From Dehalococcoidia bacterium (lineage in GTDB: Bacteria; Chloroflexota; Dehalococcoidia; SM23-28-2; RBG-16-64-32), in NCBI GenBank assembly GCA_034432935.1, contig DAOUBD010000054.1, positions 52 through 64,051 on the forward strand: a stretch of 64,000 bases of DNA. Direction: 5' to 3'. Below, piece by piece: positions 7,393 to 25,758 of this stretch. The stretch's first letter is position 1, and every line of letters starts with the position of its first letter. The position numbers were made by a program, and so were the translations under genes. Below the pieces are notes generated by a model. The model did no database searches. It was not told the DNA's origin and was given only the letters and a program-made list of their open reading frames with translations.

Positions 7393-8369
7393 AGGTCTTG
7401 GTCACCGGGGCATCGGGCTTTTTGGGGTCCCACGTCGCCGAAACCCTTGCCGGGTTGGGCCACGAGGTCAGGACCCTCGTGCGGAGCACCAGCAGCCGGG
7501 CGTTCCTCACCTTTCCCCGCGAAGAAGCCGTGGGTGACGTTACGCAGCCGGAGACGCTGGCGGCCGCTGTAGCTGGCGTCGACGTAGTGGTGCACGCGGC
7601 GGGATTGGTCAAGGCGCGTTCGGAAGCGGAATTCGCGTCGGTGAATGCGCGGGGCACAGCCAATCTTATCTCTGCCATCGAGGCTCACGCCCCCGGCCTG
7701 AAACGCTTCATCTACATTTCGAGCCTGGCGGCCCACGGCCCCAGCGAAGACGGCCAGCCGCGCCCGGCCGATGCCCCGCCGAGGCCGGTGACTGCCTACG
7801 GGCGCACCAAGCTGGCAGGCGAGGAGATCACCAGGGCTTCGTCCCTGGCCGCCCGCTCCGTAATCTTCCGCCCCCCGGTTATCTACGGACCGCGGGACCC
7901 CGCCCTTGTCCCCTTCTTCCGTCTGGCCCGCATGCGCCTAGCTCCGCTTCTCATGGGTGGTTCCAACCGCATCTCCATCGTCTACGTCGACGACATAGCC
8001 TCGGCCATCGCCCTGGCGGCTACCGCGGAGGCGCCGGTGGCGGGAAAGACCTACTGCCCCGAAGACGGTCAGCCCCATACGTGGCGAGAGCTGTTAGCAG
8101 CGGTCGAACGGGCCACCGGCCGGCGTACGCTGCGCCTCGGCGCGCCCCGCTGGGCGTTCTCCGCTGCTGCCGTTGCTAGTGAAGCCTTCGGCATGCTCCT
8201 GCGCCGGCCCGTTTCCCTCACCCGCGAGAAGGTGCAGGAGATGGCCGAGCCGCACTGGGTGTGCTCTGCCGAGTCGCTGCGCCGGGACCTGGGGTGGGCG
8301 CCCAAAGTGGACATATGGGAGGGTGCCCAGCGGACCTGCGACTGGTACCGGCAGCACGGTTGGGTCTGA
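7389..8369 (+). CDS. NAD(P)-dependent epimerase/dehydratase-family SDR (candidate ketosphinganine/oxidised-ceramide reductase)
   Basis: MKVLVTGASGFLGSHV Rossmann motif; 326 aa; ATGA coupling to the GNAT gene. Confidence 0.75.
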   Translation: MKVLVTGASGFLGSHVAETLAGLGHEVRTLVRSTSSRAFLTFPREEAVGDVTQPETLAAAVAGVDVVVHAAGLVKARSEAEFASVNARGTANLISAIEAHAPGLKRFIYISSLAAHGPSEDGQPRPADAPPRPVTAYGRTKLAGEEITRASSLAARSVIFRPPVIYGPRDPALVPFFRLARMRLAPLLMGGSNRISIVYVDDIASAIALAATAEAPVAGKTYCPEDGQPHTWRELLAAVERATGRRTLRLGAPRWAFSAAAVASEAFGMLLRRPVSLTREKVQEMAEPHWVCSAESLRRDLGWAPKVDIWEGAQRTCDWYRQHGWV

Positions 8370-8371
8370 GG

Positions 8372-9451
8372 TTACACCCGCCCGTCCTCAACCGCCTCGT
8401 CAGCTGGGATGCCGTTCGAGGGGCCTGGCCGGGGCCGGAGAAAGAGGAAGTCCGAGGGCGTCATGCGCAGGGCGACGGCCGCCAGCGGGCCGGAAGCGAA
8501 GTACGGGAGCGCCAGCATGACGTGGCTGAAGATCGAGAAGGCGGCGGCCTTGCTTTCATCGACCCCAAAAGCCACCAGAAGCCCCGCGATCGCCAGCTCG
8601 AAGACCCCCAGGCCGGCCTGGGTGAGGGGAACAGAAACAGCTATCGTGGCGGTTACCACTACCAGCAGGTAGACGGCGGGCGAAAGGTCAAGCCCCAGGG
8701 CGCGGCCGCAGGCGTAGTACATGAGGGCCTCGCATAGCCACGCTGCATGAGAAGTCCAGGCCACCGTGAACATCGCCCCCGGCCTGCGAAAGGCCTGGAG
8801 CCCTTGTCCAAAGGCACGGATTTCCACGGCTATGCGGGCCCGCCAGCGGCCTTCAGGCTGGCGCTGGGCAACTGCCGGGGCGGCAGCATGCCGCGCTAGC
8901 CAGCGCGCCGCCGCCAGGCCTACGGCCAACACGAGGCCATAAACGAGGGCCAAGGGCCACAGAAAGCGCGCCTCCTGGTGAAGCACCAGGCCCAGGATGA
9001 TGAAGGTGCAAAAGGCCACGATATCGGTAAGTTTTTCCGAGAGGAGCGTCGCGATAATGCTGGAGGCGCTGAGGCCCGTTCTGCGGCGTAGGAACTGCAC
9101 GCGCAAGAACTCCCCGGCCCTTAGGGGGAACGCTAGGTTGGTGGCCACCCCCACCACCGCGGTTAGGAACAGGAAGGTCAGGCTGAGGCGCCGCATAGGA
9201 GCGAAGAACTGCCGCCAGCGGATGGCCCGGAACCAATCTGACGCTAGGTTGGCGGCAAAGGCCAGCGGCAGCCACCACGGGTTGGCAGCCTCCAGCTCCT
9301 CCCTCACGGCCCCGATATCGACCCGCCACAAAAGCCCGCCCAGGAGGAGTGAGGCGAGGGCCAACTGGGCCAGGAAACGGGCGAAGGGGAAGCTCCGGCG
9401 GAGGAGGCCAGGTGCGGCTACCGCCGCGGCTTCGGTGGGATACTCCATCAC
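8372..9451 (-). CDS. integral membrane protein, lysylphosphatidylglycerol-synthase TM-region-like (flippase-like UPF0104)
   Basis: 359 aa, about 8 hydrophobic helices; convergent with the SDR gene (3-bp gap). Confidence 0.55.
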   Translation of the reverse strand: MMEYPTEAAAVAAPGLLRRSFPFARFLAQLALASLLLGGLLWRVDIGAVREELEAANPWWLPLAFAANLASDWFRAIRWRQFFAPMRRLSLTFLFLTAVVGVATNLAFPLRAGEFLRVQFLRRRTGLSASSIIATLLSEKLTDIVAFCTFIILGLVLHQEARFLWPLALVYGLVLAVGLAAARWLARHAAAPAVAQRQPEGRWRARIAVEIRAFGQGLQAFRRPGAMFTVAWTSHAAWLCEALMYYACGRALGLDLSPAVYLLVVVTATIAVSVPLTQAGLGVFELAIAGLLVAFGVDESKAAAFSIFSHVMLALPYFASGPLAAVALRMTPSDFLFLRPRPGPSNGIPADEAVEDGRV

Positions 9452-9655: not shown

Positions 9656-10876
9656 TTATTTCAGCGCTGAGGGCATGTCGCCCTCCCCGGCATCGATGCG
9701 CTGTAAGAGCTCCCACACGAACTCCTCCGTATCAGCCAGCGTCTGGGGATCCAAGTTTTCTGCTCGGTCCGCAGGCTGGTGCCACAGGGGCAAGATGCCG
9801 TCCTGGCGACCCAGCCCGACGAAGGTTAGTGTCCGTAGCCCGTATTTGACGCCAATGGCGCCCTCGGTGTAGCCCAAGCGCATCGGCTTCTCGTAGGCTC
9901 GCAGATCGGCACGGGCGGAAGCCATGGAGCGCGCCAGGGAAAGCAGCCTTGCGTCCGGGTGATAACGCCTGGTCATGCCTTCCCAGGTAATGAAACAGGC
10001 GCCGGCCCCGGGGCCGCCGACGGAGTCGAAGACGATGAAAAAGGCGCCTTCCAGCTCGTCCCTGTGCTCCCGGACGAAGGCCTCGGCGCCGTAGCAGCCC
10101 ACCTCTTCGCAGCCGGTGTTGAGGGCCCAGACCTCCGTCTCCATCAGGGGCTCTCCAACAAGCCGCTCCGCTAGGGTCAGAACCATTGCGGCCCCCGAGG
10201 CGTTGTCATTGGCTCCCGGCGTGTAGGGCGTGAAATCGGCCTGTACCAGCACCATTAGGATCGCTGCAACACCGAGGCCCGCAACGGCGGCTGCCGGGTG
10301 GATCCATGAGGCGCCGGTTATGGCCCCGGCGATGAAAAGCCCCAGAAGGGCTCCCATGCTCCCAAAACCAAGCGGCACCAGGAGGGCAAAAAGGCGAAGG
10401 TGCCGGGCCGACTTGAAGACGAAGGGGGTCCTGTGGGTATCCAGGTGCCCCACCAATATAACCCTGCGCCGCACAGGCCCCCTCGGCGGCACCACAGCCC
10501 AGACGTTATGGCTATGGCCCTTCGGCAGGGCCCAGCGCAGCGGGTTGCTGACGAAGTTCAGCTCTAGGAGCGACGATACGATAGCGAAAGCCACGATGGC
10601 TGCCGCCACACCGGCGGTCCAACGGCCCCCCATGGGGTAGAGGGCGAGGGCCAAAAGGGCTAGGGCAAGGGCCAGGGCGTAGGGCCGCCAGGCAGAAATG
10701 GCGCTCCTGAACCGCTGGACGCGCGCCTCGAGGCCTAGACCCTCAAGGACGGCGCCAGCGTACTCCGCTGCCGCTGCTTCTTCCGCCGTTGTCGACCCCC
10801 GCGGGCCTATCGTCTCCGCCAGGTAGCGCACGTGCTCCAGGCAGCGGGCGGTGCTTGCGCGCGGGGTGCCGGTCAT
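9656..10876 (-). CDS. M28-family zinc peptidase with N-terminal membrane-spanning segment
   Basis: GANDNASGAAMVL zinc-ligand motif; hydrophobic stretch ALALALALLALALYP... Confidence 0.75.
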   Translation of the reverse strand: MTGTPRASTARCLEHVRYLAETIGPRGSTTAEEAAAAEYAGAVLEGLGLEARVQRFRSAISAWRPYALALALALLALALYPMGGRWTAGVAAAIVAFAIVSSLLELNFVSNPLRWALPKGHSHNVWAVVPPRGPVRRRVILVGHLDTHRTPFVFKSARHLRLFALLVPLGFGSMGALLGLFIAGAITGASWIHPAAAVAGLGVAAILMVLVQADFTPYTPGANDNASGAAMVLTLAERLVGEPLMETEVWALNTGCEEVGCYGAEAFVREHRDELEGAFFIVFDSVGGPGAGACFITWEGMTRRYHPDARLLSLARSMASARADLRAYEKPMRLGYTEGAIGVKYGLRTLTFVGLGRQDGILPLWHQPADRAENLDPQTLADTEEFVWELLQRIDAGEGDMPSALK

Positions 10877-11042
10877 CCCGTGGCGAATTATACGGTGGCC
10901 GTCGCTTTGCTGGCACCATCGAGGGCCCTGGGTTGTCTTACGGCTTAGGCGCTGGGCGTTAGCCTGCCGGCGCCGGGTCGCCCGCGCTCGCGCCCTGCTA
11001 TACTGGGGCGCAGCGCAGACCGCTTGGCCTAGGAGGAGGGAC

Positions 11043-12341
11043 GTGACGGACCAGGAAAGCAGGACATTGCCAACGGACTTCCTGACAGCATCTCGCCTTT
11101 CACCGCAAGAGGCAGCCTTCTACTACCGCGGCTCCCCACAGGTGGTTGCGGATGGCGTCGTCTTCACCCCCAGCACTGGCGGCGTCACGCACTTCATCTG
11201 CGGTGACCGCATGCTGGTAGTAGACACGTCCCTCTTTCTTTTCGCTCGCGGCATCCTGGACGAGGTGCGGCAACGCTTCAGCCAGTCGCCGGTAGAGGCC
11301 ATCGTCTACACTCACGGGCACATCGACCACGTTTCCGGAGCCCATATCTACATCCAGGAGGCAGAGCAGCGCGGGCATCCCAGGCCCCAGATTATCGGCC
11401 ACGCCGATGTAGCCCGGCGCTTCGACCGCTATAGGATGCTGGACCGGCAGAACAACTTCATCAATAACTTCCAGTTCAACATGAAGGGGCAGATGCGCGC
11501 CTTCTCGGTCACCCCGTGGGTCTATCCCGACATCACCTACTACGAGAGCATGGAACTAACGGTTGGAGGGGAACGGTTCGAGCTCTACCACTCTCGCGGG
11601 GAGACGGATGATCAGACGTGGGTCTGGTGCCCTGCCCGCCGGGTGGCCTGCGCCGGCGACATGTTCATTTGGGCTACCCCCAACGTCGGCAACCCGCTGA
11701 AGGTGCCGCGCTATTGCCTGGATCTAGCCATCAACCTGGAGCGCATGGCCGCCCTTAAGCCCCTCCACCTGCTGCCGGGCCACGGCCCCGCGATTTCGGG
11801 GGAGGAGCAGGTCCAGGACGCGCTCCTCTCCACCGCATCTTGGCTTCGTTCCATCCACGACCAGGTGGTGGAGGGCATGAACCAGGAGAAGTTCCTGGAG
11901 GACATCCTGCGCGATATCAAGTACCCGCCGAACGACCGCCCTTGGCTAAAGCCCATATACGATCACCCCGAGTTCGTGGCGCGAAACGTCTATCGTCTTT
12001 ATGGGGGATGGTATGACGGCAACCCTGCCCATATTCTTCCTGCTCACTCCCACGACGTGGCTCGGGAACTGATTAGCGTGACTGGTTCGGCTGGCCTGTT
12101 GGCGCGGGCCCGCGAGCTACGGGACAAGGGCGATCTTCAGATGGCCTGCCACATGGTGGATTTCGTCCGGCGCGGCGAGCCGGATAACAGGGAGGCCTGG
12201 GAGCTGTGGCGTGATCTGTTCAAGGCCCGGCTCCAGAACGAGCCGTCCTTGATGGCCCGTGGCGTGTTCCTTTCGGCTATCGACGAAGCGGAGCGGCGCC
12301 TGGCGGCGCTCTCCTCTGCGCGGCAGGAAGGCAGCCGGTAA
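11043..12341 (+). CDS. MBL-fold metallo-hydrolase, alkyl/aryl-sulfatase-like
   Basis: YTHGHIDH metal motif; start placed at GTG 11043, 6 nt after AGGAGGAGGG. The track ORF begins earlier at 10851, overlapping the peptidase gene. Confidence 0.6.
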   Translation: MTDQESRTLPTDFLTASRLSPQEAAFYYRGSPQVVADGVVFTPSTGGVTHFICGDRMLVVDTSLFLFARGILDEVRQRFSQSPVEAIVYTHGHIDHVSGAHIYIQEAEQRGHPRPQIIGHADVARRFDRYRMLDRQNNFINNFQFNMKGQMRAFSVTPWVYPDITYYESMELTVGGERFELYHSRGETDDQTWVWCPARRVACAGDMFIWATPNVGNPLKVPRYCLDLAINLERMAALKPLHLLPGHGPAISGEEQVQDALLSTASWLRSIHDQVVEGMNQEKFLEDILRDIKYPPNDRPWLKPIYDHPEFVARNVYRLYGGWYDGNPAHILPAHSHDVARELISVTGSAGLLARARELRDKGDLQMACHMVDFVRRGEPDNREAWELWRDLFKARLQNEPSLMARGVFLSAIDEAERRLAALSSARQEGSR

Positions 12342-17813: not shown

Positions 17814-18227
17814 TCAACGTAGAGGCGCGGAGAGGGTTTGGGCCTCTTCAGCCAAGCGGCCTAGGACGACACCCAGCTTGACCCCTGTGATGGTTCGGTG
17901 AAGAAAGGGGCCATCGGGGTCGATGAAGTAATGATGTAGTTTGCCCTCGCGCTCGACTCTCAGCATGCCAGCACGGCGCAGGTCGCCGATGATCCCCCAG
18001 ACCGTGCGCTGGGTCAGGTGGAGCCTATCGGCGATCTCTTCCACCGTGCAGCCGGGGTAGGCAGCGATGAAGAATAGGACGGAGCCGTGGCTGGAGACCA
18101 GATACCACTCGTTGCGTTGGTTGACACGACCCATTGGCGGCAAAAGGGCGCGCCCTGGTCTGTGGCGCTCGCGGGGGTGCGGCGATGAAGACGCAGGAGC
18201 GCGCGGAGACATAGTATTGCCGGCCAC
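17814..18227 (-). CDS. winged helix-turn-helix transcriptional regulator (MarR/ArsR-like)
   Basis: CTVEEIADRLHLTQRTVWGIIGDLRRAGML is an HTH; the true start may be the internal MGRVNQ (18134). Confidence 0.5.
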   Translation of the reverse strand: MAGNTMSPRAPASSSPHPRERHRPGRALLPPMGRVNQRNEWYLVSSHGSVLFFIAAYPGCTVEEIADRLHLTQRTVWGIIGDLRRAGMLRVEREGKLHHYFIDPDGPFLHRTITGVKLGVVLGRLAEEAQTLSAPLR

Positions 18228-18457
18228 CCCAAACTTGGGTTAGGGGCAGGTTAGGGCCCCATTAGATTTCGGTAAGGAAAGCTTCTGGGGCCGCCGAAAG
18301 GCTGGCCCCTCTGGACTCGAGTCCCCTGGGGCGCTATCTTCCCAGTATGTTGGAGGGAGGACGGACGCCGTTGCAAAGGCCGGATATCTGTCCCGGGGAA
18401 GAGCTGCGAAAGGTGGAAGGTACATCACAAGGCGGCCAGGCGGAGCCGGGGGGATTC

Positions 18458-19408
18458 ATGTTGGGTCACCACGCGGATCAGCCCTTCGACTCGCCCCACC
18501 ACATCTTCGAGGTGCTGTGGGATGGACTTCGGGCCCTCGCCTCCCTTCAGGGGGGAACCATCCGGTTGCGGGGCCGTTACGGGCGTGACTTGACGCCCCT
18601 GTTCCCGGAGATCGTCCGTGCCGCAGCGGGGTTGACGGTGGACGCCGTCGTGGACGGGGCCATCGTAGCCCTCGACGGCGATGGCCGCCCTGCCTTCGGC
18701 CCTCTGGCGGCAAGGCTGATGGCTGGGGAGCCGGACGGGCCGCCGGCGGGGTTCCGCGTGGCCTTCCATGCCTTCGATATCCTGAGCTTTCAAGGGAGGC
18801 CGGTGGTGGACCTGGCCCTAGTCCGCAGGAAAGAGATCTTGCGCCGGGCCGTCAGGGGAGGCGGGATCATCTACGCTCCCGATTTCGTGACGGGGGAAGG
18901 GCTCCTGCTCTTCGAGGCGGCCCGGGCCTTCGGGGTCGATGGCATAGTGGCAAAGGACCTGCGGAGCCCTTACCTGCCAGGCGTTCGGAGCAGCCGATGG
19001 CTGGTGATCAGCCCCGTGCGGCGCAGCCGATTCGTTATCGCAGGCTACACCTACGGCGGCCGCTGGACGGGGCGCCACACCTCACGGGCGGAGGGCCCTT
19101 TCTCCTCCCTTCTCCTGGGCGCGTGGGACGGTCCCGGCCAGTTGCGATACGTGGGGGAGGTCACTGGGGCCTTTGCCGATGCGGCGCCCGCCATCGCCCG
19201 GCAGTTGGAGCCCCTGACAACGCGCCAGTGTCCCTTCCCTCAGGAGCCGGACGTCCGTCGCCTGGTCTTCTGGTGCCAGCCGTCCCTGTGCGCCCGCGTA
19301 CGCTTCGCCGGATGGAACCCAGACCGCACGCTTCGCTTCCCGATCTTCGAAGCTTTGCGCCCGGACGTGCCGGTCTCGGCCTGCCGATTGGAAGACGCCG
19401 GCGGATAA
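18458..19408 (+). CDS. ATP-dependent DNA ligase-domain paralog with substituted catalytic motifs (probably ligase-dead)
   Basis: Aligns along its whole length with the LigD ligase domain in this window, but motif I KxDG is LWDG, motif III DGEIV is DGAIV, and motif V WLKVKK is WLVISP. Motif IV (DGIVAK) and the OB-fold CPFxxEP are retained. ATG 18458 has an SD; an alternative ATG lies at 18347. Confidence 0.65.
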   Translation: MLGHHADQPFDSPHHIFEVLWDGLRALASLQGGTIRLRGRYGRDLTPLFPEIVRAAAGLTVDAVVDGAIVALDGDGRPAFGPLAARLMAGEPDGPPAGFRVAFHAFDILSFQGRPVVDLALVRRKEILRRAVRGGGIIYAPDFVTGEGLLLFEAARAFGVDGIVAKDLRSPYLPGVRSSRWLVISPVRRSRFVIAGYTYGGRWTGRHTSRAEGPFSSLLLGAWDGPGQLRYVGEVTGAFADAAPAIARQLEPLTTRQCPFPQEPDVRRLVFWCQPSLCARVRFAGWNPDRTLRFPIFEALRPDVPVSACRLEDAGG

Positions 19409-19422
19409 GCCCAGCACAAGCC

Positions 19423-22158
19423 TCAGCCAAGAGCCCCCTGGTCCGCGGCCTCCAGACTCGGGGATGCCGGCTCGGCCAGGAGCCCGGCTAGGTCGTGCTT
19501 CTCCTCCAGAATGCGGGCCCACAGGTCGCCTGCGTCCTCCAGGCGCGCTGGCGCCGTAACGATGGTGAAGTCCGCTGGGTGTGCGTTCGCCAACTCGTCC
19601 CACCGTAGGGGCATGGAGACGGAGGCCTCAGGCGTAGCCCGAGGCGAGTAGACCGATGCCAGGGTCTTGCCGCGGGCGTTCTGGTTATGGTCGTAGAACA
19701 CCTTGCCCCGCCGCTTCGCCACGGTCCATTCCATGGTCACATCCCGGGGATGCGCCCGCACCAGGAACCTCCCCAGGGTCTCGGCCACCGCTCTAGCGGC
19801 ATCGTAGTCGAGCCGCCGCTGGATGGGCACATAGACGTGGAGACCTGCGCGGCCCGAGGTCTTGAGGAAGGAAGACAGGGAGAGGGAGTCGAGGAGCTCC
19901 TTCAGGTAGAGGGCCACCTCGCAGGTTTTGGCGAAGGCCTTCCGGCTCGCCCCCGGCTCACCCGGTTGGGCAACGTACGGATCGAGGTCGAAGACGATGA
20001 AATCGGGGTAGTTCAGGAGGGAACCTCGGATCTTCTCCTCGGAACCAGCGAACTCCAGAGAGAGGTGATAGCCGTCTGGTTCCGGGTCGATCCGGGAGTA
20101 CCAGGTATGCAGCTCCAGCGTTCCCATTTGCCCTAACCAGAGGAGAGTAGGGAGGTTGTTGCACATCAGGTAATCGCCGTCGCCAGCGTTGGAGTCCGAC
20201 CAGAGACGGACGGTGGCCACAAATTCCGGCAGAGGCGCATCCCAGTGCTTCTGGTAGAAGCCCTCGCCGCGGATCCCATCGGGGTAGCGAGCCAGGGTGA
20301 GGGGCCTGTTCCGCAGGTGAGACAAGATGTAGGGGGAGACGCGGGCCAGGTAGGCGAGGAGGTCCCGCTTGGTCAAGGCGGGCCGGCCGTCCAGAGCTGG
20401 CCACATCTCCTTGTCCAGGTTGGTGAGGCTGATCTCGTAGCCTTCGACCCGCAGCGCCAGCTCGCCGGCGGGACGTGCGAGTTGCTCTAGCACGCCATGC
20501 ACCGTCTGGGCAGGAAGGCTATGTACGGCTCCAGGAGGCGGCGGTACCGGGGCCTCCCTGCGGACCTCCGCCGGCGCCTTATCCTCCCGCAAGCCAACGA
20601 AGACGGGTGAGCGCAGGCGGCCATCCGGCGTCCACTGGGCGAAGCGCACGCGGGCCACCAGTTTCGGCCTGACCCAGGTCGTAGGGGCGTTCAGCGGCGG
20701 CTCCTCAGCGAAGGGGCACTCCTCGGCCCGGAGGCGATCGAGGCGCTGACGTAGCGACGCCAGCGCTGAGTCATCGAAGCCGGCGCCCACGTGTCCGGCG
20801 TAGGTCAGGCGGCCATCCTCGTAGTAACCTAGCAGAAGGGCGCCGAAGGAGCCTGCCCGGCTACCTGCGCCAGCGCTGTAGCCTCCGATGACGAACTCGT
20901 CCTCCAGCGTCTTCTTGACCTTGAGCCAGGCGCGGGAGCGACGGCCCGCCTCGTAAAGGCTGTCCTTGCGCTTGGCGACGACACCCTCGAAACCGAGGGC
21001 GACTGCGGCCTCGTAGGCCTCTTCCCCATCCTCCTCGAAGTGCTCGAGAAGGCGCACCCCGTTCCGCGGGGCAAGTAGGGCAGACAAGAGCGCCTTGCGC
21101 TGCCAGAGGGGCGCGGCGCATAGATCCCAGCCCTCGGCGTAGAGAAGATCGAAGACGTAATAGACGACCGGTATTGCGGATTCGGCGCGCTGGATGTCGG
21201 CCGGGCGGGTGAGGCCCAAGCGCTGCTGGAGAAGATGGAAGGAAGGTACGCCGCGCTCATCCAAGGCGACGATCTCGCCGTCCAACACCAGGCTGCCCGC
21301 GGGTTGCTGGGCCAGCTCCCCCGCCAGAGACGGGTACTGAGCTGCCATGTCCAGGCCGCGACGGGAGAGGAGCCGCACCCGGCCATCGGCGACAATCGCT
21401 ATGGCCCTCACACCATCCAGCTTCGGCTCGAAGAACCAGCCCGGGGCCGAGAAGGGCCCCTCGGCCAGGGTGGCGAGCATCGGCTTCACGGCCAGGCGCA
21501 AGGGAGCCTGCCGGGCACCAGCCGCGTCCTGGGGGCGCACGATGAGCCGCTGGCCCCTGGGCGGCATGTGGCCCGCCTTCAGGTCCTCGATGGTGAGCCC
21601 GGACAGCACCGAGCGTTCCCGCGTCAGGACATCCTCGTCGCTAGTGGCGAAGGCATCGCGGTGCTTAATGAGCAGCCACTGGTTCTCGCCACGCCGCGTG
21701 CGCACCAGCGCCCAAGAGCCCTTCAACTTCTGGCCGCGGAGGAACAAGGAGAGCTTGCCCGCCTCCAGCCCTTCTCTGACTCGTCGCTCGGCCTCCCCGC
21801 GGTCATGGAACCAGAGCTGGCCGTCCTCTTCCGGGGAGTAGGTTCCGGCGTCCCAGACGATGACCTCGCCCGCGCCGTACTCGCCTCTGGGTATAACGCC
21901 CTCGAAGGAGGCATACTCCAGCGGGTGGTCCTCCACCATCATCGCCAAGCGCCGGCCCTTGGGGTCAAGGGAAGGGCCTTTCGGGATCGGCCACGATTTC
22001 AGGACGCCATCAACCTCCAGCCGGAAGTCGTAGTGCAGGCGCCTGGCGTTGTGCTTCTGGATAACGAAGATGAGGGGCCCCTCGGACGGCGCGCGCCCTT
22101 TGGGAGGCGGCTCCGGGGTGCGTTCGAAGTCCCTCTTCTGCTGGTACTCGTACAGCAT
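19423..22158 (-). CDS. ligD: multifunctional NHEJ DNA ligase LigD (phosphoesterase - ligase - polymerase order)
   Basis: N-terminal PE domain (KRDFERTPEP..FVIQKHNARRLHYDFRLE), ligase motifs (EPKLDGVR, EGVVAK, WLKVKK), C-terminal LigD polymerase/primase domain; start at ATG 22158 (MLYEYQQ). Confidence 0.9.
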   Translation of the reverse strand: MLYEYQQKRDFERTPEPPPKGRAPSEGPLIFVIQKHNARRLHYDFRLEVDGVLKSWPIPKGPSLDPKGRRLAMMVEDHPLEYASFEGVIPRGEYGAGEVIVWDAGTYSPEEDGQLWFHDRGEAERRVREGLEAGKLSLFLRGQKLKGSWALVRTRRGENQWLLIKHRDAFATSDEDVLTRERSVLSGLTIEDLKAGHMPPRGQRLIVRPQDAAGARQAPLRLAVKPMLATLAEGPFSAPGWFFEPKLDGVRAIAIVADGRVRLLSRRGLDMAAQYPSLAGELAQQPAGSLVLDGEIVALDERGVPSFHLLQQRLGLTRPADIQRAESAIPVVYYVFDLLYAEGWDLCAAPLWQRKALLSALLAPRNGVRLLEHFEEDGEEAYEAAVALGFEGVVAKRKDSLYEAGRRSRAWLKVKKTLEDEFVIGGYSAGAGSRAGSFGALLLGYYEDGRLTYAGHVGAGFDDSALASLRQRLDRLRAEECPFAEEPPLNAPTTWVRPKLVARVRFAQWTPDGRLRSPVFVGLREDKAPAEVRREAPVPPPPGAVHSLPAQTVHGVLEQLARPAGELALRVEGYEISLTNLDKEMWPALDGRPALTKRDLLAYLARVSPYILSHLRNRPLTLARYPDGIRGEGFYQKHWDAPLPEFVATVRLWSDSNAGDGDYLMCNNLPTLLWLGQMGTLELHTWYSRIDPEPDGYHLSLEFAGSEEKIRGSLLNYPDFIVFDLDPYVAQPGEPGASRKAFAKTCEVALYLKELLDSLSLSSFLKTSGRAGLHVYVPIQRRLDYDAARAVAETLGRFLVRAHPRDVTMEWTVAKRRGKVFYDHNQNARGKTLASVYSPRATPEASVSMPLRWDELANAHPADFTIVTAPARLEDAGDLWARILEEKHDLAGLLAEPASPSLEAADQGALG

Positions 22159-22215: not shown

Positions 22216-22515
22216 TAAATGGGTTGCCGGGCTGGGCAGCCGCAAGAGACAATGCAGGCGCTTCCCGACCCGATCCGCAGCGGTCCAGGAAGAAGGGACT
22301 CGCCGGGAGCCACGGGCGACCGAAAGCCCCGGCCGAGACCTGGAACCCAGAAGCCGCCGCGGTTCAAAGCGGGAAGCTTTTCTTTTGGAGCGCCGGGTTG
22401 AAGGGGCTCACGCTGGCATAAGGCTCCCGTCCCCTAGCCGAGAGGGTCCTCCTTTGCTATTGTGAATGTGTCCCGAAAGTTAGTCCCAAACCTATCGCGA
22501 AGGGGGCGAAACAGA

Positions 22516-23010
22516 ATGGGCACGCTCCTGCGAACGCTTCTGGCACTCGGTGCGTCTCTGGCCCTCATATCGGCGGTGGCGTGCGGCGGCGGCGAAGAGG
22601 CCACCCCTACGCCAACGAGGGCCGCGACTACAGCGCCTGCGGCCACGGCGACGGCCACCAAAGCCGCCACGCCAGTTGCGGGCACAAGTAGCCCCGCGGC
22701 CGTCACCCTGAAGATAGCCTCTGTGGCGCCCAACCCGGCGAAGGTCGGCGATAAGGTGACCATCACCTTTAATACCCAGCCCGGGAACGTCATCGGCCTC
22801 CAGGTAACGGCGCCCAACGGGCAGATCGCTATTCAAACGCAGCTCACGGCCGGCGGGGACGGCACCGCCACCCTCGATCAGGTGGTGAACACGCCAGGGA
22901 CCTGGAAGGTCGAGGCGGCGGCCGGACGGACGGTTGCCGACCTGTTGGCGCTGCAACTGAACCCGGTGCCCGGCCCGCATTCGGACGACGCCACCTTCGA
23001 GGTGCAGTAG
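22516..23010 (+). CDS. lipoprotein (signal peptide with lipobox VACGG), T/A-rich linker, beta-rich domain
   Basis: MGTLLRTLLALGASLALISAVAC lipobox; 164 aa from ATG 22516. Confidence 0.5.
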   Translation: MGTLLRTLLALGASLALISAVACGGGEEATPTPTRAATTAPAATATATKAATPVAGTSSPAAVTLKIASVAPNPAKVGDKVTITFNTQPGNVIGLQVTAPNGQIAIQTQLTAGGDGTATLDQVVNTPGTWKVEAAAGRTVADLLALQLNPVPGPHSDDATFEVQ

Positions 23011-23019
23011 CAGAGGGGC

Positions 23020-23721
23020 TCAGCGGGGCGGCTGCGCAGCCGGCGCAGTACCCTCGACGATACGTCCATCCTTCATCCAGACGATGCGGTCCGCCGTGGC
23101 CGCCACGTTCATATCGTGCGTCACCAAGAGAATGGTGACGTGGCGGCTCTCGCGTATGCTGCGGAAGAGGGCCAAGACCTTCTCCGCCGCCGCCGAGTCC
23201 AGGTTGCCCGTAGGCTCGTCGGCCAAGAGGATGGAGGGGTCGTTGGCCAGGGCCCTGGCGATGGCCAGCCTTTGCCGCTCGCCGCCCGAGAGGCGGGGGG
23301 GCTGGAACTTCTCCTTGGCCGACAGCCCCACCGCAGCCAGGAGCTCCCGCGCCTTCTCCCTCTGTTCCCGGTGGCTCATGCCGTTGCTGAACATGGCGAT
23401 GGCCACGTTCTCCAAGGCGTTCAGGTGGGGCAGGAGGTTATGTAGCTGGAAGACGAGGCCCACCTCCGTGCGCCGGAAGCGGTCGTCCCCGGCCTCCCGC
23501 AGGTCCTTGCCGTTGACCAAGATGGTGCCAGCGGTCGGCACATCCAGCGCCGCAACGAGGTGCAGCAGGGTGGACTTGCCGCAGCCCGATGGCCCGGTGA
23601 TGGCCACGAACTCTCCCCGCTTTACCGTGAGATTGACCCCATCTAGGGCCCTGACGATGCCGCCATCGAACAGCTTGACCACGTTCCTCAGCTCGATGGC
23701 AGGCGGGGCACTATCACTCAT
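23020..23721 (-). CDS. ABC transporter ATP-binding protein (MacB/LolD family)
   Basis: GPSGCGKST Walker A, LSGGERQRLAIARAL signature, LLADEPTGNLD Walker B. Confidence 0.85.
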   Translation of the reverse strand: MSDSAPPAIELRNVVKLFDGGIVRALDGVNLTVKRGEFVAITGPSGCGKSTLLHLVAALDVPTAGTILVNGKDLREAGDDRFRRTEVGLVFQLHNLLPHLNALENVAIAMFSNGMSHREQREKARELLAAVGLSAKEKFQPPRLSGGERQRLAIARALANDPSILLADEPTGNLDSAAAEKVLALFRSIRESRHVTILLVTHDMNVAATADRIVWMKDGRIVEGTAPAAQPPR

Positions 23722-24832
23722 GCCGTAGCGCCTCGAGGGGCTTCAGCAAGGCGGCCCTGAGGGCCGGGTAAAGGGCCCCGATGAAGGCCATGCCGATGGC
23801 GATGCCCAGAGCGCGCCCGAAGACATCCCCGGGGTAGTCAGGTTGAAAGACGCCGACCAGGTCAGGGACCTCCCGGATCAGTTGGATGGCGACGAGACCG
23901 GCGAGAAGCCCGACGCCAGCGCCGGCCAAGGCGATGAGCACGGCCTCGCCCATGACCAGGGCCAGGACCCGGAAGCGGCTCCACCCAACTGCCCGCATGA
24001 CGCCAAACTCGCGGGTGCGTTCGAAGACGGACATGACGGTGGTGTTCATTACGCCGATAGCGCCGATGACCAAGGCCAGGATGGAGGCCCCCACGTTGGC
24101 TGCGCTGATGAGCTTCAGGTTGCGGTCTATGCGGCCGAACTCGGACTCCGTCCGCACCGTGGCCATCTCCGGATTGTCCTTGTCGATCTTGCTACGCAAA
24201 GCGTCGACATCGACGCCAGGCTTGACCCGAACGAAGATCAGGGTTACGTTCCCCGGCTTCCGCTCCATAGCCTGGAGCGTAACCAGAGGGAGCATAGAGG
24301 CGGAGTCCCCGAAGACCTGGCCGGTCTGGAAGATCCCAACTACCTTGAACTCCTGGTCTTCGATCTTCAGCGTGTCGCCCACCGATTTCCCGAGATCCCT
24401 CGCCGCCCGGTAGCCCAGCATGATCTCGTCTTGCGCTGTCGCGCCGTAGGCCCGGCCGTCCACCACCTGGACGCCGAAGGGCTCTAGGTGCTCCGGCGGC
24501 ATGCCTAGCTCCAGGAAAAAGGGGTGCTCCTTGTCCAACTCCACGACGGCGATAAGCACCCCGACGGCGCTCTCCACCTCCGGGTAGGAGGCGATGCGTC
24601 TCAACTGCTCCTCGTCAAGCGAGCTGTAGAGCACATCGGAGACGCCCTTCTGGCCGATGGTGAAGTCGGCGGAGCCGGTGCGCAAGATGGAGATGGCGGT
24701 CTGGCGCAGGCTGAAGGTAAGGACCCCCAGGGCGAAGACCGTCATGATGGCGATGGCGACCCCTCCGCCGGTGAGGGCTGACCGGACCTTGCGGGTGAAG
24801 ACGTTCCGGACTATCAGCCAGAGAAAGGACAT
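23714..24832 (-). CDS. ABC transporter permease, FtsX/MacB-like with periplasmic domain
   Basis: 372 aa; N-terminal TM, large extracytoplasmic domain, C-terminal 3 TM; overlaps the ATPase gene by 8 nt. Confidence 0.75.
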   Translation of the reverse strand: MSFLWLIVRNVFTRKVRSALTGGGVAIAIMTVFALGVLTFSLRQTAISILRTGSADFTIGQKGVSDVLYSSLDEEQLRRIASYPEVESAVGVLIAVVELDKEHPFFLELGMPPEHLEPFGVQVVDGRAYGATAQDEIMLGYRAARDLGKSVGDTLKIEDQEFKVVGIFQTGQVFGDSASMLPLVTLQAMERKPGNVTLIFVRVKPGVDVDALRSKIDKDNPEMATVRTESEFGRIDRNLKLISAANVGASILALVIGAIGVMNTTVMSVFERTREFGVMRAVGWSRFRVLALVMGEAVLIALAGAGVGLLAGLVAIQLIREVPDLVGVFQPDYPGDVFGRALGIAIGMAFIGALYPALRAALLKPLEALRHE

Positions 24833-24930: not shown

Positions 24931-25758
24931 CTAGCCGGCGGCCGCCCTGGTCCGCCTCTCCGGCCGCGCCGTCCGGGGCTTCCTCTCCTCCTGGCGTTTC
25001 TTCTTGGCGGCCTCCACACTGGCCCTGAGGGCCGTCATGATGTCAGTGACCTTGGCGGCCTGGGGCACGGCGGCCTCACGCACCTCTTGCCCTTCGAGCT
25101 TGGCTTGGATCACCTCCATCAGGGCCTCCCGGTACTCATCCCGGTACTTGGAGGGGTCGAACTCTTCGGACAAGAGGTCGATGAGGGTGAAGGCCATGGC
25201 CAGTTCCTTTTCGGAGACCTCTACCTCCGGCAGCGCTGGCGCCTCCCGGATCTCGTCAGGATAGTACAGGGTTTCCAGCACCAGCGCGCCGTCCACGGGC
25301 CGAAGGGCGCATAGCTGCTCCTTGTTGCGAATGGCGATCTTGGCCAGCCCCGTTAGGCCCTTCTCCCGCAACGCTCGCAGCAGCAGGGCGAAGGGCTTGG
25401 CGCCCTTGGCCTCGGGTTCCAGGTAGTACGTCCGTTCATAGAAGATGGGATCGATCTCCTGCGAGCGGACGAAGGCGGTCAACTCCACGGTCTGCTTGCT
25501 GGGCAGGGGCAGCTTGGCGAAGTCCTCTTCGGTTACCACGATGTATTCGCCCTTGGCATACTCGTACCCCCGGACGACCTCGTCCCACTCCACCGCCCGC
25601 TCATGGGTGGGGCACCATCGCAGCTGCTTGAGGCGCGCGCCGCAATCCTTGTGTAGTTGGTTGAAAGATATGTCCTTGCTCTCCGTAGCTGCATAAAGCT
25701 TTACCGGGATGCTCACCATCCCAAAGCTGATCACGCCGTTCCAGATCGATCGCGGCAT
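24931..25758 (-). CDS. ku: NHEJ DNA end-binding protein Ku
   Basis: MPRSIWNGVISFGMVSIPVKLYAA.. matches the bacterial Ku core; basic C-terminal tail; start at ATG 25758. Confidence 0.9.
   Translation of the reverse strand: MPRSIWNGVISFGMVSIPVKLYAATESKDISFNQLHKDCGARLKQLRWCPTHERAVEWDEVVRGYEYAKGEYIVVTEEDFAKLPLPSKQTVELTAFVRSQEIDPIFYERTYYLEPEAKGAKPFALLLRALREKGLTGLAKIAIRNKEQLCALRPVDGALVLETLYYPDEIREAPALPEVEVSEKELAMAFTLIDLLSEEFDPSKYRDEYREALMEVIQAKLEGQEVREAAVPQAAKVTDIMTALRASVEAAKKKRQEERKPRTARPERRTRAAAG

Follow-up and report, generated by a model that had tools for sequence, protein, structure and literature searches.

Why should a bacterium that encodes Ku and a LigD with all ligase motifs intact keep, in the same locus, a second ligase domain whose catalytic residues are gone? 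The question is raised by a stretch of 64,000 nucleotides, here called the window, from contig DAOUBD010000054.1 of the Dehalococcoidia bacterium assembly GCA_034432935.1 (Chloroflexota). At 18347..19408 on the plus strand it carries the gene of a stand-alone LigD-type ligase-domain paralog of 353 aa, which comprises a nucleotidyltransferase (NTase) and an OB domain and will be referred to as pLig. An earlier note, made from the DNA letters, had taken this protein to be incompetent for adenylylation and possibly an accessory, a competitor or a scaffold in nonhomologous end joining (NHEJ). Judged by its homology to an enzyme, the loss of essential catalytic residues and purifying selection across species, pLig is a pseudoenzyme, and we favour the explanation that it serves as a noncatalytic component of end joining by Ku and LigD.

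Fold and catalytic motifs of pLig

One BLASTP alignment covers the whole ligase domain of the adjacent LigD open reading frame (ORF; 940 aa) with 37% identity (118/320; E 2e-47), in agreement with the collinearity claimed in the earlier note. Above the Pfam cut-offs pLig matched only ligase-domain families, namely DNA_ligase_A_M (PF01068, 67 bits) and DNA_ligase_A_C (PF04679, 64 bits), and it carries neither a fused Pol (PrimPol) nor a PE domain. The best NCBIfam model was TIGR02779, which describes the ligase domain of NHEJ ligases, with 189.1 bits against a cut-off of 227.75; within the stand-alone family, intact relatives reach 247-292 bits and decayed relatives 214-237. NF006078, a model of stand-alone ligases that we take to represent the LigC type, matched weakly (93 bits; cut-off 296). 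An AlphaFold2 (AF2) model built with 32 orthologs reached a pLDDT of 90.4 and a pTM of 0.87, and its top Foldseek matches in the PDB were structures of the ligase (LIG) domain of Mycobacterium tuberculosis (Mtb) LigD, 6NHX (E 2.6e-25), 1VS0 and 6NHZ, with E values of about 1e-25. Besides pLig and LigD, no further ligase paralog was found in the 64-kb window.

The ORF list offers two start codons, ATG 18347 (353 aa) and ATG 18458 (316 aa), with a common end at 19408. The upstream ATG and its flanking DNA (GGCGCTATCTTCCCAGTATGTTGGAGGGAGGA) are nearly invariant in four orthologs whose coding sequences are 73-94% identical as protein, and distant orthologs share the peptide LPxxIEP upstream of the methionine encoded at 18458. 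For these reasons 18347 is the likely start, rather than 18458 as assumed previously. Residue numbers given here nevertheless follow the 316-aa form.

All catalytic motifs of pLig were located on the plus strand, their coordinates being confirmed by translation, and residue roles were taken from a review of LigD (PMC8656161). Motif I reads EVLWDGLR (18509..18532), with L20 (codon 18515-18517) instead of the AMP-accepting lysine, while E18 and R25 are kept. In motif III, DGAIV (18653..18667), A68 stands in place of the ribose-contacting glutamate (Mtb E530). Motif IV, DGIVAK (18938..18955), has D161 for the metal-binding glutamate (Mtb E613) and retains its lysine, K166 (Mtb K618). Motif V is reduced to WLVISP (18998..19015), V183 and S185 replacing the phosphate-contacting lysines (Mtb K635 and K637), and motif VI to RPDV (19358..19369), with V304 where active relatives have R-E/D-D-K. 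BLASTP pairs EPKLDG, DGEIV and WLKVKK of LigD with EVLWDG, DGAIV and WLVISP of pLig, and phmmer (E 4e-34) sets K481, E530, E613, K635 and K637 of Mtb LigD against L20, A68, D161, V183 and S185. The replacements in motifs I, III and V described earlier were thus found by both methods, and the losses at D161 and V304 are additions to that list. The accompanying statement that motif IV and the OB fold are conserved holds for the OB-fold columns and K166, but not for the motif IV glutamate, which is aspartate here and E, D, P, G, L or A across the pLig clade. The motif VI lysine is gone in every decayed lineage.

An alternative frame or alignment does not bring the nucleophile back: none of BLASTP, phmmer against the PDB, MAFFT and hmmalign restores a lysine in motif I. 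In the phmmer alignments to 6NHZ, 1VS0 and 6NHX, L20 lies opposite K481, the residue that is methionine in the engineered 6NHZ construct, and because this methionine aligns with L20, pLig can be seen as the naturally occurring equivalent of a mutant known to be dead. In Mtb LigD, either of the single changes E613A and K637A is enough to stop nick sealing (PMC8656161). pLig keeps two adenine contacts, E18 (Mtb E479) and K166 (K618), the ribose contact R25 (R486), the stacking phenylalanine F106 of motif IIIa, R40 of motif Ia (R501) and R177 (R629). Since the lysyl-AMP intermediate cannot form without the motif I lysine, pLig is predicted to be unable to seal DNA.

Conservation, selective decay and ancestry

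A search of 5.8 billion proteins yielded 83 relatives of pLig. The motif I lysine is absent from 54 of the 56 matches that have at least 44% identity and cover the motif, which reads EV[LI]W[DE]G or variants thereof, and orthologs with 94, 82, 74 and 73% identity from independent assemblies show the identical EVLWDG. The substitutions that might have been peculiar to this one sequence are therefore present in related strains and species. More than 50 lysine-less orthologs were found, mostly in metagenome-assembled genomes (MAGs) of Dehalococcoidia, with L, I, M, C, A, E or R at the motif I position. A decayed copy also lies on the chromosome OY762959.1. Among representatives of clusters at 50% identity, 23 of the best 150 likewise lack the lysine, and R, D, W, G and N were seen there as well; going by this variety, the residue that replaces the nucleophile is unconstrained. 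More than 50 independently assembled relatives at species level have an intact ORF, as the window does. The ratio of nonsynonymous to synonymous substitution rates (dN/dS) of pLig is 0.14-0.20 against four orthologs; between the window and one related genome (L055) it is 0.152 for pLig compared to 0.105, 0.120 and 0.118 for the Lig, PE and Pol domains of LigD. Across 32 orthologs, 41 positions of pLig are invariant. Public names of lysine-less members vary: P0052, P0068 and many JGI entries are called 'non-homologous end-joining DNA ligase', 'ATP-dependent DNA ligase' or 'bifunctional NHEJ protein LigD', and others 'hypothetical protein'. This annotation is inconsistent and probably wrong with respect to activity.

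The losses are concentrated in the active site. In an alignment of 73 ligase domains from 53 genome loci, 52 columns are at least 90% conserved among the 36 catalytically intact domains. In the dead clades the losses fall chiefly on the motif I lysine, the motif III and motif IV glutamates and the two motif V lysines; also lost are the motif I aspartate in one dead lineage and a few others, namely G418, F467, V530 and T539 (numbering of the 940-aa LigD ORF). All remaining conserved columns, including the motif Ia arginine and the OB-fold core, are kept. pLig itself differs at 8 of the 52 columns, and five of these eight are the five columns of the nucleophile and of the metal- and phosphate-binding residues (p 2e-5 in a Fisher test with the columns classified post hoc), a pattern that, from the alignment, is not due to chance. 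The equivalents of E479, R486, K618 and the motif IIIa phenylalanine are ~80-100% kept in all decayed groups, whereas the phosphate, metal and nucleophile residues decay. Since two sister lineages keep a basic residue (Arg) at the second motif V position, pLig of the window is among the most decayed members.

A neighbour-joining tree of the ligase domains (200 bootstraps) places the stand-alone Ku-linked ligases of these Chloroflexota in one clade (100%), and the domains embedded in LigD fall outside it. At the base of this clade stand members (ELKWDG...WLKVKR...REDK) whose motifs are all intact and whose TIGR02779 scores, given above, exceed the cut-off. The decayed members form a clade (99%), and all of them have lost the motif VI lysine and the first of the two motif V lysines. 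In this decayed clade, a lysine-less group with ELMWGG or ELLWGG in motif I nests with the lysine-retaining EVKWGG group (97.5%), the clade of pLig groups with the lysine-retaining L014 (97.5%), and a clade joining the two lysine-less groups receives 0% bootstrap support. Because each lysine-less lineage thus pairs with a lysine-retaining sister, the motif I lysine was lost at least twice independently. As read from the tree, these nucleophile losses came after the earlier catalytic damage to motifs V and VI that the decayed clade shares, and the pLig clade descends from Ku-linked stand-alone ligases by stepwise, convergent loss of catalytic residues.

Two cysteines, C273 (~19274-19276) and C309 (~19382-19384), occur in most stand-alone Ku-linked members, intact and decayed; C273 is threonine in the ELMWGG group, and LigD domains have valine at both positions. 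They could form a disulfide or a metal site.

The locus in the window and its counterparts in relatives

Convergent with pLig and separated from it by 14 bp lies ligD (19423..22158, minus strand), which encodes a PE-Lig-Pol protein of 911 aa with all ligase motifs intact according to Pfam, NCBIfam and a motif table; its motif I lysine codon is at 21421-21423. Ku (275 aa; PF02735; TIGR02772, 307 bits) is encoded at 24931..25758 on the minus strand. Divergent from pLig is the gene of a small winged helix-turn-helix (wHTH) regulator of MarR/ArsR-like type (17814..18212, minus strand; Pfam MarR_2 and HTH_24), whose longest ORF begins at 18227, conservation favouring M6 at 18212 as the start; its dN/dS is 0.11. 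Domain matches and coordinates thus bear out the divergent regulator and the shared locus with LigD and Ku that the earlier note had described.

When the window proteins were compared by tblastn with the loci of relatives, pLig was found to have Ku, an intact LigD or both as neighbours in nearly all of the 47 loci from Chloroflexota, and the wHTH gene to stand beside it in 14 related loci. Genes for both pLig and Ku are present together in ~35 loci. Three arrangements were distinguished. The first is that of the window, with wHTH and pLig divergent and ligD (PE-Lig-Pol) and ku on the strand opposite to pLig; it is present, whole or in part as some contigs are short, in L001-L006, L008, L010, L013, L017 and L018, and without the wHTH gene in L009, L012 and L015. 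Citrate synthase is encoded upstream in three loci. In the second, found in the ELMWGG group, L014 and L020, ku is followed by pLig on the same strand, and the 10-kb flanks contain no LigD; the CAWJLO01 assembly is one genome of the ELMWGG type. The third, found in the EVKWGG group, consists of clusters in the order pLig-Ku-LigD or LigD-Ku-pLig. Every co-resident LigD ligase domain keeps all motifs.

In 10 of the 17 loci with ku upstream, an in-frame ATG of pLig and the stop codon of ku overlap in the 4-nt sequence ATGA, which indicates translational coupling of Ku and the decayed paralog. These are L014, L016, L022, L025, L027-L031 and L044, with junctions at about locus position 9905-9926. 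A separate lineage, in which arginine replaces the lysine (EVRWDG) and motifs III, IV, V and VI are degenerate too, has proteins of Dormibacteria MAGs as its closest named relatives. On two contigs (L057, 7046-10771; L058, 392-3112) its gene lies in an operon between ku and a gene for a PE-Lig protein with intact KLDG, and the stop codon of the dead ligase overlaps the start of the intact one (GTGA).

The intergenic region between the wHTH gene and pLig (18213..18346) is probably a promoter or regulatory region. A DNA alignment of five orthologous regions revealed the invariant blocks GATTTCGGTAAGGAA, CTGGAC and GGCGCTATCTT; the blocks (18230-18365) run on past ATG 18347 into the first codons (ATGTTGGAGGGAGGA) and are more conserved than the coding sequence of orthologs at 73-94% protein identity. 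They may represent a promoter with a leaderless start or a binding site of a regulator. A strict scan of the region upstream of pLig detected no sigma-70 promoter, and the hand-read candidate TGGACT-17-TATCTT, 6 nt before ATG 18347, agrees with the consensus at 8 of 12 positions and remains a guess. A structured RNA in the conserved upstream block was rejected, as Rfam gave no match at E<=1. The 12-bp palindrome GGACTCGAGTCC (18313-18324) was likewise ruled out as a conserved operator by its lack of wider conservation, being perfect only in the window and the 94% relative (L054) and degenerate in L055 and L001. An anti-phage defence role of pLig was dismissed, PADLOC having returned no match for it.

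Between ligD and ku of the window lie a small ORF resembling a secreted protein or lipoprotein (22462-23010, plus strand), an ABC transporter ATPase (23020-23721, minus strand) and a permease (23714-24832, minus strand); in several relatives ku directly follows ligD, unlike this three-gene interval. Some related loci carry interrupted ligase genes. In L047 a stand-alone ligase with intact motifs is split on one strand into residues 1-70 (8573-8785) and 68-316 (10001-10744), ~1.2 kb apart, as if a mobile element or some other insertion had come between them. The LigD Pol domain of L017 matches in two overlapping pieces (10992-11973), which may reflect a frameshift, and the LigD ligase domain of L032 (~7512-8447) is interrupted by an in-frame stop codon immediately ahead of the CPF motif. 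These two LigD defects could be assembly errors or signs of decaying copies.

A possible function of pLig in end joining

With a probability of roughly 0.6, pLig is a noncatalytic component of Ku/LigD end joining, a pseudo-ligase kept by selection. It would bind Ku, an expectation founded on the direct binding of Mtb Ku to the LIG domain of LigD, through the Ku core and C-terminus (PMC9638933; bioRxiv 10.64898/2025.12.12.693941). It would also bind DNA nicks or ends via the retained motif Ia arginine, the R629 equivalent and OB-fold surfaces, and would act structurally by holding ends, by synapsis, by hand-off or by modulating the access of LigD, with LigD performing the sealing. The purifying selection, the selective loss of catalytic residues and the linkage to Ku and LigD fit this, as they fit the cautious wording of the earlier note. 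A precedent is given by four papers, according to which ligase-dead Lig4/Dnl4 still promotes end joining (PMC9638927, PMC3694833, PMC10858965, PMC11754673).

Several points weigh against this explanation. Ku binding, DNA binding and the direction of the effect on NHEJ are all argued by analogy. The residues by which the Mtb LIG domain contacts Ku (D522, K579 and L580) are, in a phmmer mapping, unconserved even in the LigD of this organism, so that the Ku interface of pLig cannot be checked by sequence. In the window, pLig is not co-transcribed with ku but convergent with ligD and provided with its own divergent regulator. The ku-pLig loci of the ELMWGG group lack LigD within their 10-kb flanks, and hence no sealing partner is seen there. 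Finally, a gain of DNA-binding positive charge was not seen in the decayed groups, which are slightly more acidic, their mean net charge being -5 to -8 compared to -3 for LigD and ~0 for intact stand-alone ligases.

A farther-reaching proposal, which we put forward tentatively, makes pLig a natural 'structural ligase' with Ku as its obligate partner. With the adenosine-binding half of its active site retained, it would recognise nicks, ends or 5'-adenylylated ends by means of the ligase clamp and organise or gate NHEJ without chemistry, a prokaryotic counterpart of the noncatalytic role of Lig4 that would have arisen at least twice through convergent loss of the nucleophile. In ku-pLig lineages without LigD within 10 kb, such a protein might recruit an unrelated ligase.

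The strongest rival, although in our view unlikely, is a competitor or brake: the dead ligase would hold nicks, ends or the LIG site of Ku and restrain mutagenic joining by LigD until it is removed or repressed, for instance by the wHTH regulator. In favour of it are the fold and genomic neighbourhood that pLig shares with the LIG domain of LigD and the divergent regulator that accompanies it in the 14 related loci; a look-alike of LIG could compete because Mtb Ku binds LIG directly (PMC9638933). Against this stand the coupling to ku in the 10 loci described above and the operon of the lysine-to-arginine lineage, in which the dead ligase gene lies between ku and PE-Lig. Both arrangements imply that the dead ligase is made in stoichiometric amounts together with the machinery it would inhibit, which is easier to reconcile with a subunit than with an antagonist.

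It is improbable that pLig is instead a noncovalent binder of ATP, AMP, NAD or adenylylated DNA (AppDNA), acting as a sensor or confined to step 3, that is, to sealing or handling abortive ligation intermediates. The adenine and ribose contacts E18, R25, K166 and F106 are as well kept in the decayed groups as stated above, and sealing of pre-adenylylated nicks is still possible for motif I lysine mutants of classic ligases such as Chlorella virus ligase and Rnl2. However, the motif III glutamate, the motif IV glutamate and the motif V lysines are needed for step 3 in studied ligases, and all of these are gone in pLig of the window, E613 and K637, each indispensable for nick sealing by Mtb LigD, being among the positions concerned. 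The retained residues may serve the fold only.

An active ligase with an alternative nucleophile or an unconventional mechanism is highly improbable. K166 is near-invariant, and R123, R133 and R156 are newly fixed in the clade, but the search for a compensating nucleophile revealed no invariant lysine or histidine specific to the dead clades; H15 is common to intact stand-alone relatives. Moreover, the motif I position is occupied by chemically unrelated residues (L, I, M, C, A, E, R, D, W, G and N), and five other catalytic positions are lost too. That pLig is a decaying pseudogene or an assembly or sequencing artefact, as the loss of several catalytic residues and the TIGR02779 score below the cut-off might suggest, is refuted by the intact orthologs in more than 50 species-level relatives, the low dN/dS, the confident AF2 model and the 41 invariant positions.

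Compared with known systems, pLig is a pseudoenzyme branch of the NHEJ ligase family and not a new kind of system. It resembles the LIG domain of Mtb LigD (residues ~450-759; 1VS0, 6NHX, 6NHZ) in its NTase and OB fold, collinearity, 29-30% identity and NHEJ neighbourhood, and shares the motif Ia arginine, the motif IIIa phenylalanine, the motif IV lysine and the OB-fold core; it differs in standing alone without PE and Pol and in lacking six catalytic residues, and in effect takes further, in a natural protein, what the engineered K481M change does in the 6NHZ construct. The intact stand-alone Ku-linked ligases of Dehalococcoidia (ELKWDG...WLKVKR, e.g., L024 and L036) belong to the same family by the tree, are often encoded beside ku and have W21, D11, S12, H15, E51, C273 and C309 in common with pLig, but unlike it keep every catalytic motif and pass TIGR02779. 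Catalytically dead Lig4/Dnl4 offers the parallel of a nonadenylylating ligase body that supports synapsis or repair while another ligase seals (PMC9638927, PMC3694833, PMC10858965, PMC11754673). There the sole NHEJ ligase, which works with XRCC4/XLF, was inactivated by point mutation in the laboratory, whereas pLig is natural, separately encoded, coexists with an active LigD and is known here from its sequence. The AdoMetDC prozyme of trypanosomes is likewise a dead paralog kept with the active enzyme (PMC5201418), but of another fold and pathway, and the heterodimer activation shown there is only possible for pLig.

The literature searched, including NHEJ reviews, a comparative-genomics survey and papers on the multiple ligases of Streptomyces and Agrobacterium, and excluding subscription-only papers, describes no lysine-less LigD or LigC paralog; the nearest precedent among LigD paralogs comes from Agrobacterium LigD1, whose POL domain is inactive. 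As many lysine-less proteins are annotated as ligases, surveys that count LIG domains overestimate ligase complements. Accounts of bacterial NHEJ usually give it two proteins, Ku and LigD. If our explanation is true, a conserved third NHEJ component derived from a ligase would change this picture for a large group of environmental bacteria, and pLig would provide a natural system for studying the role of the ligase body apart from sealing, which is now studied with engineered Lig4 mutants.

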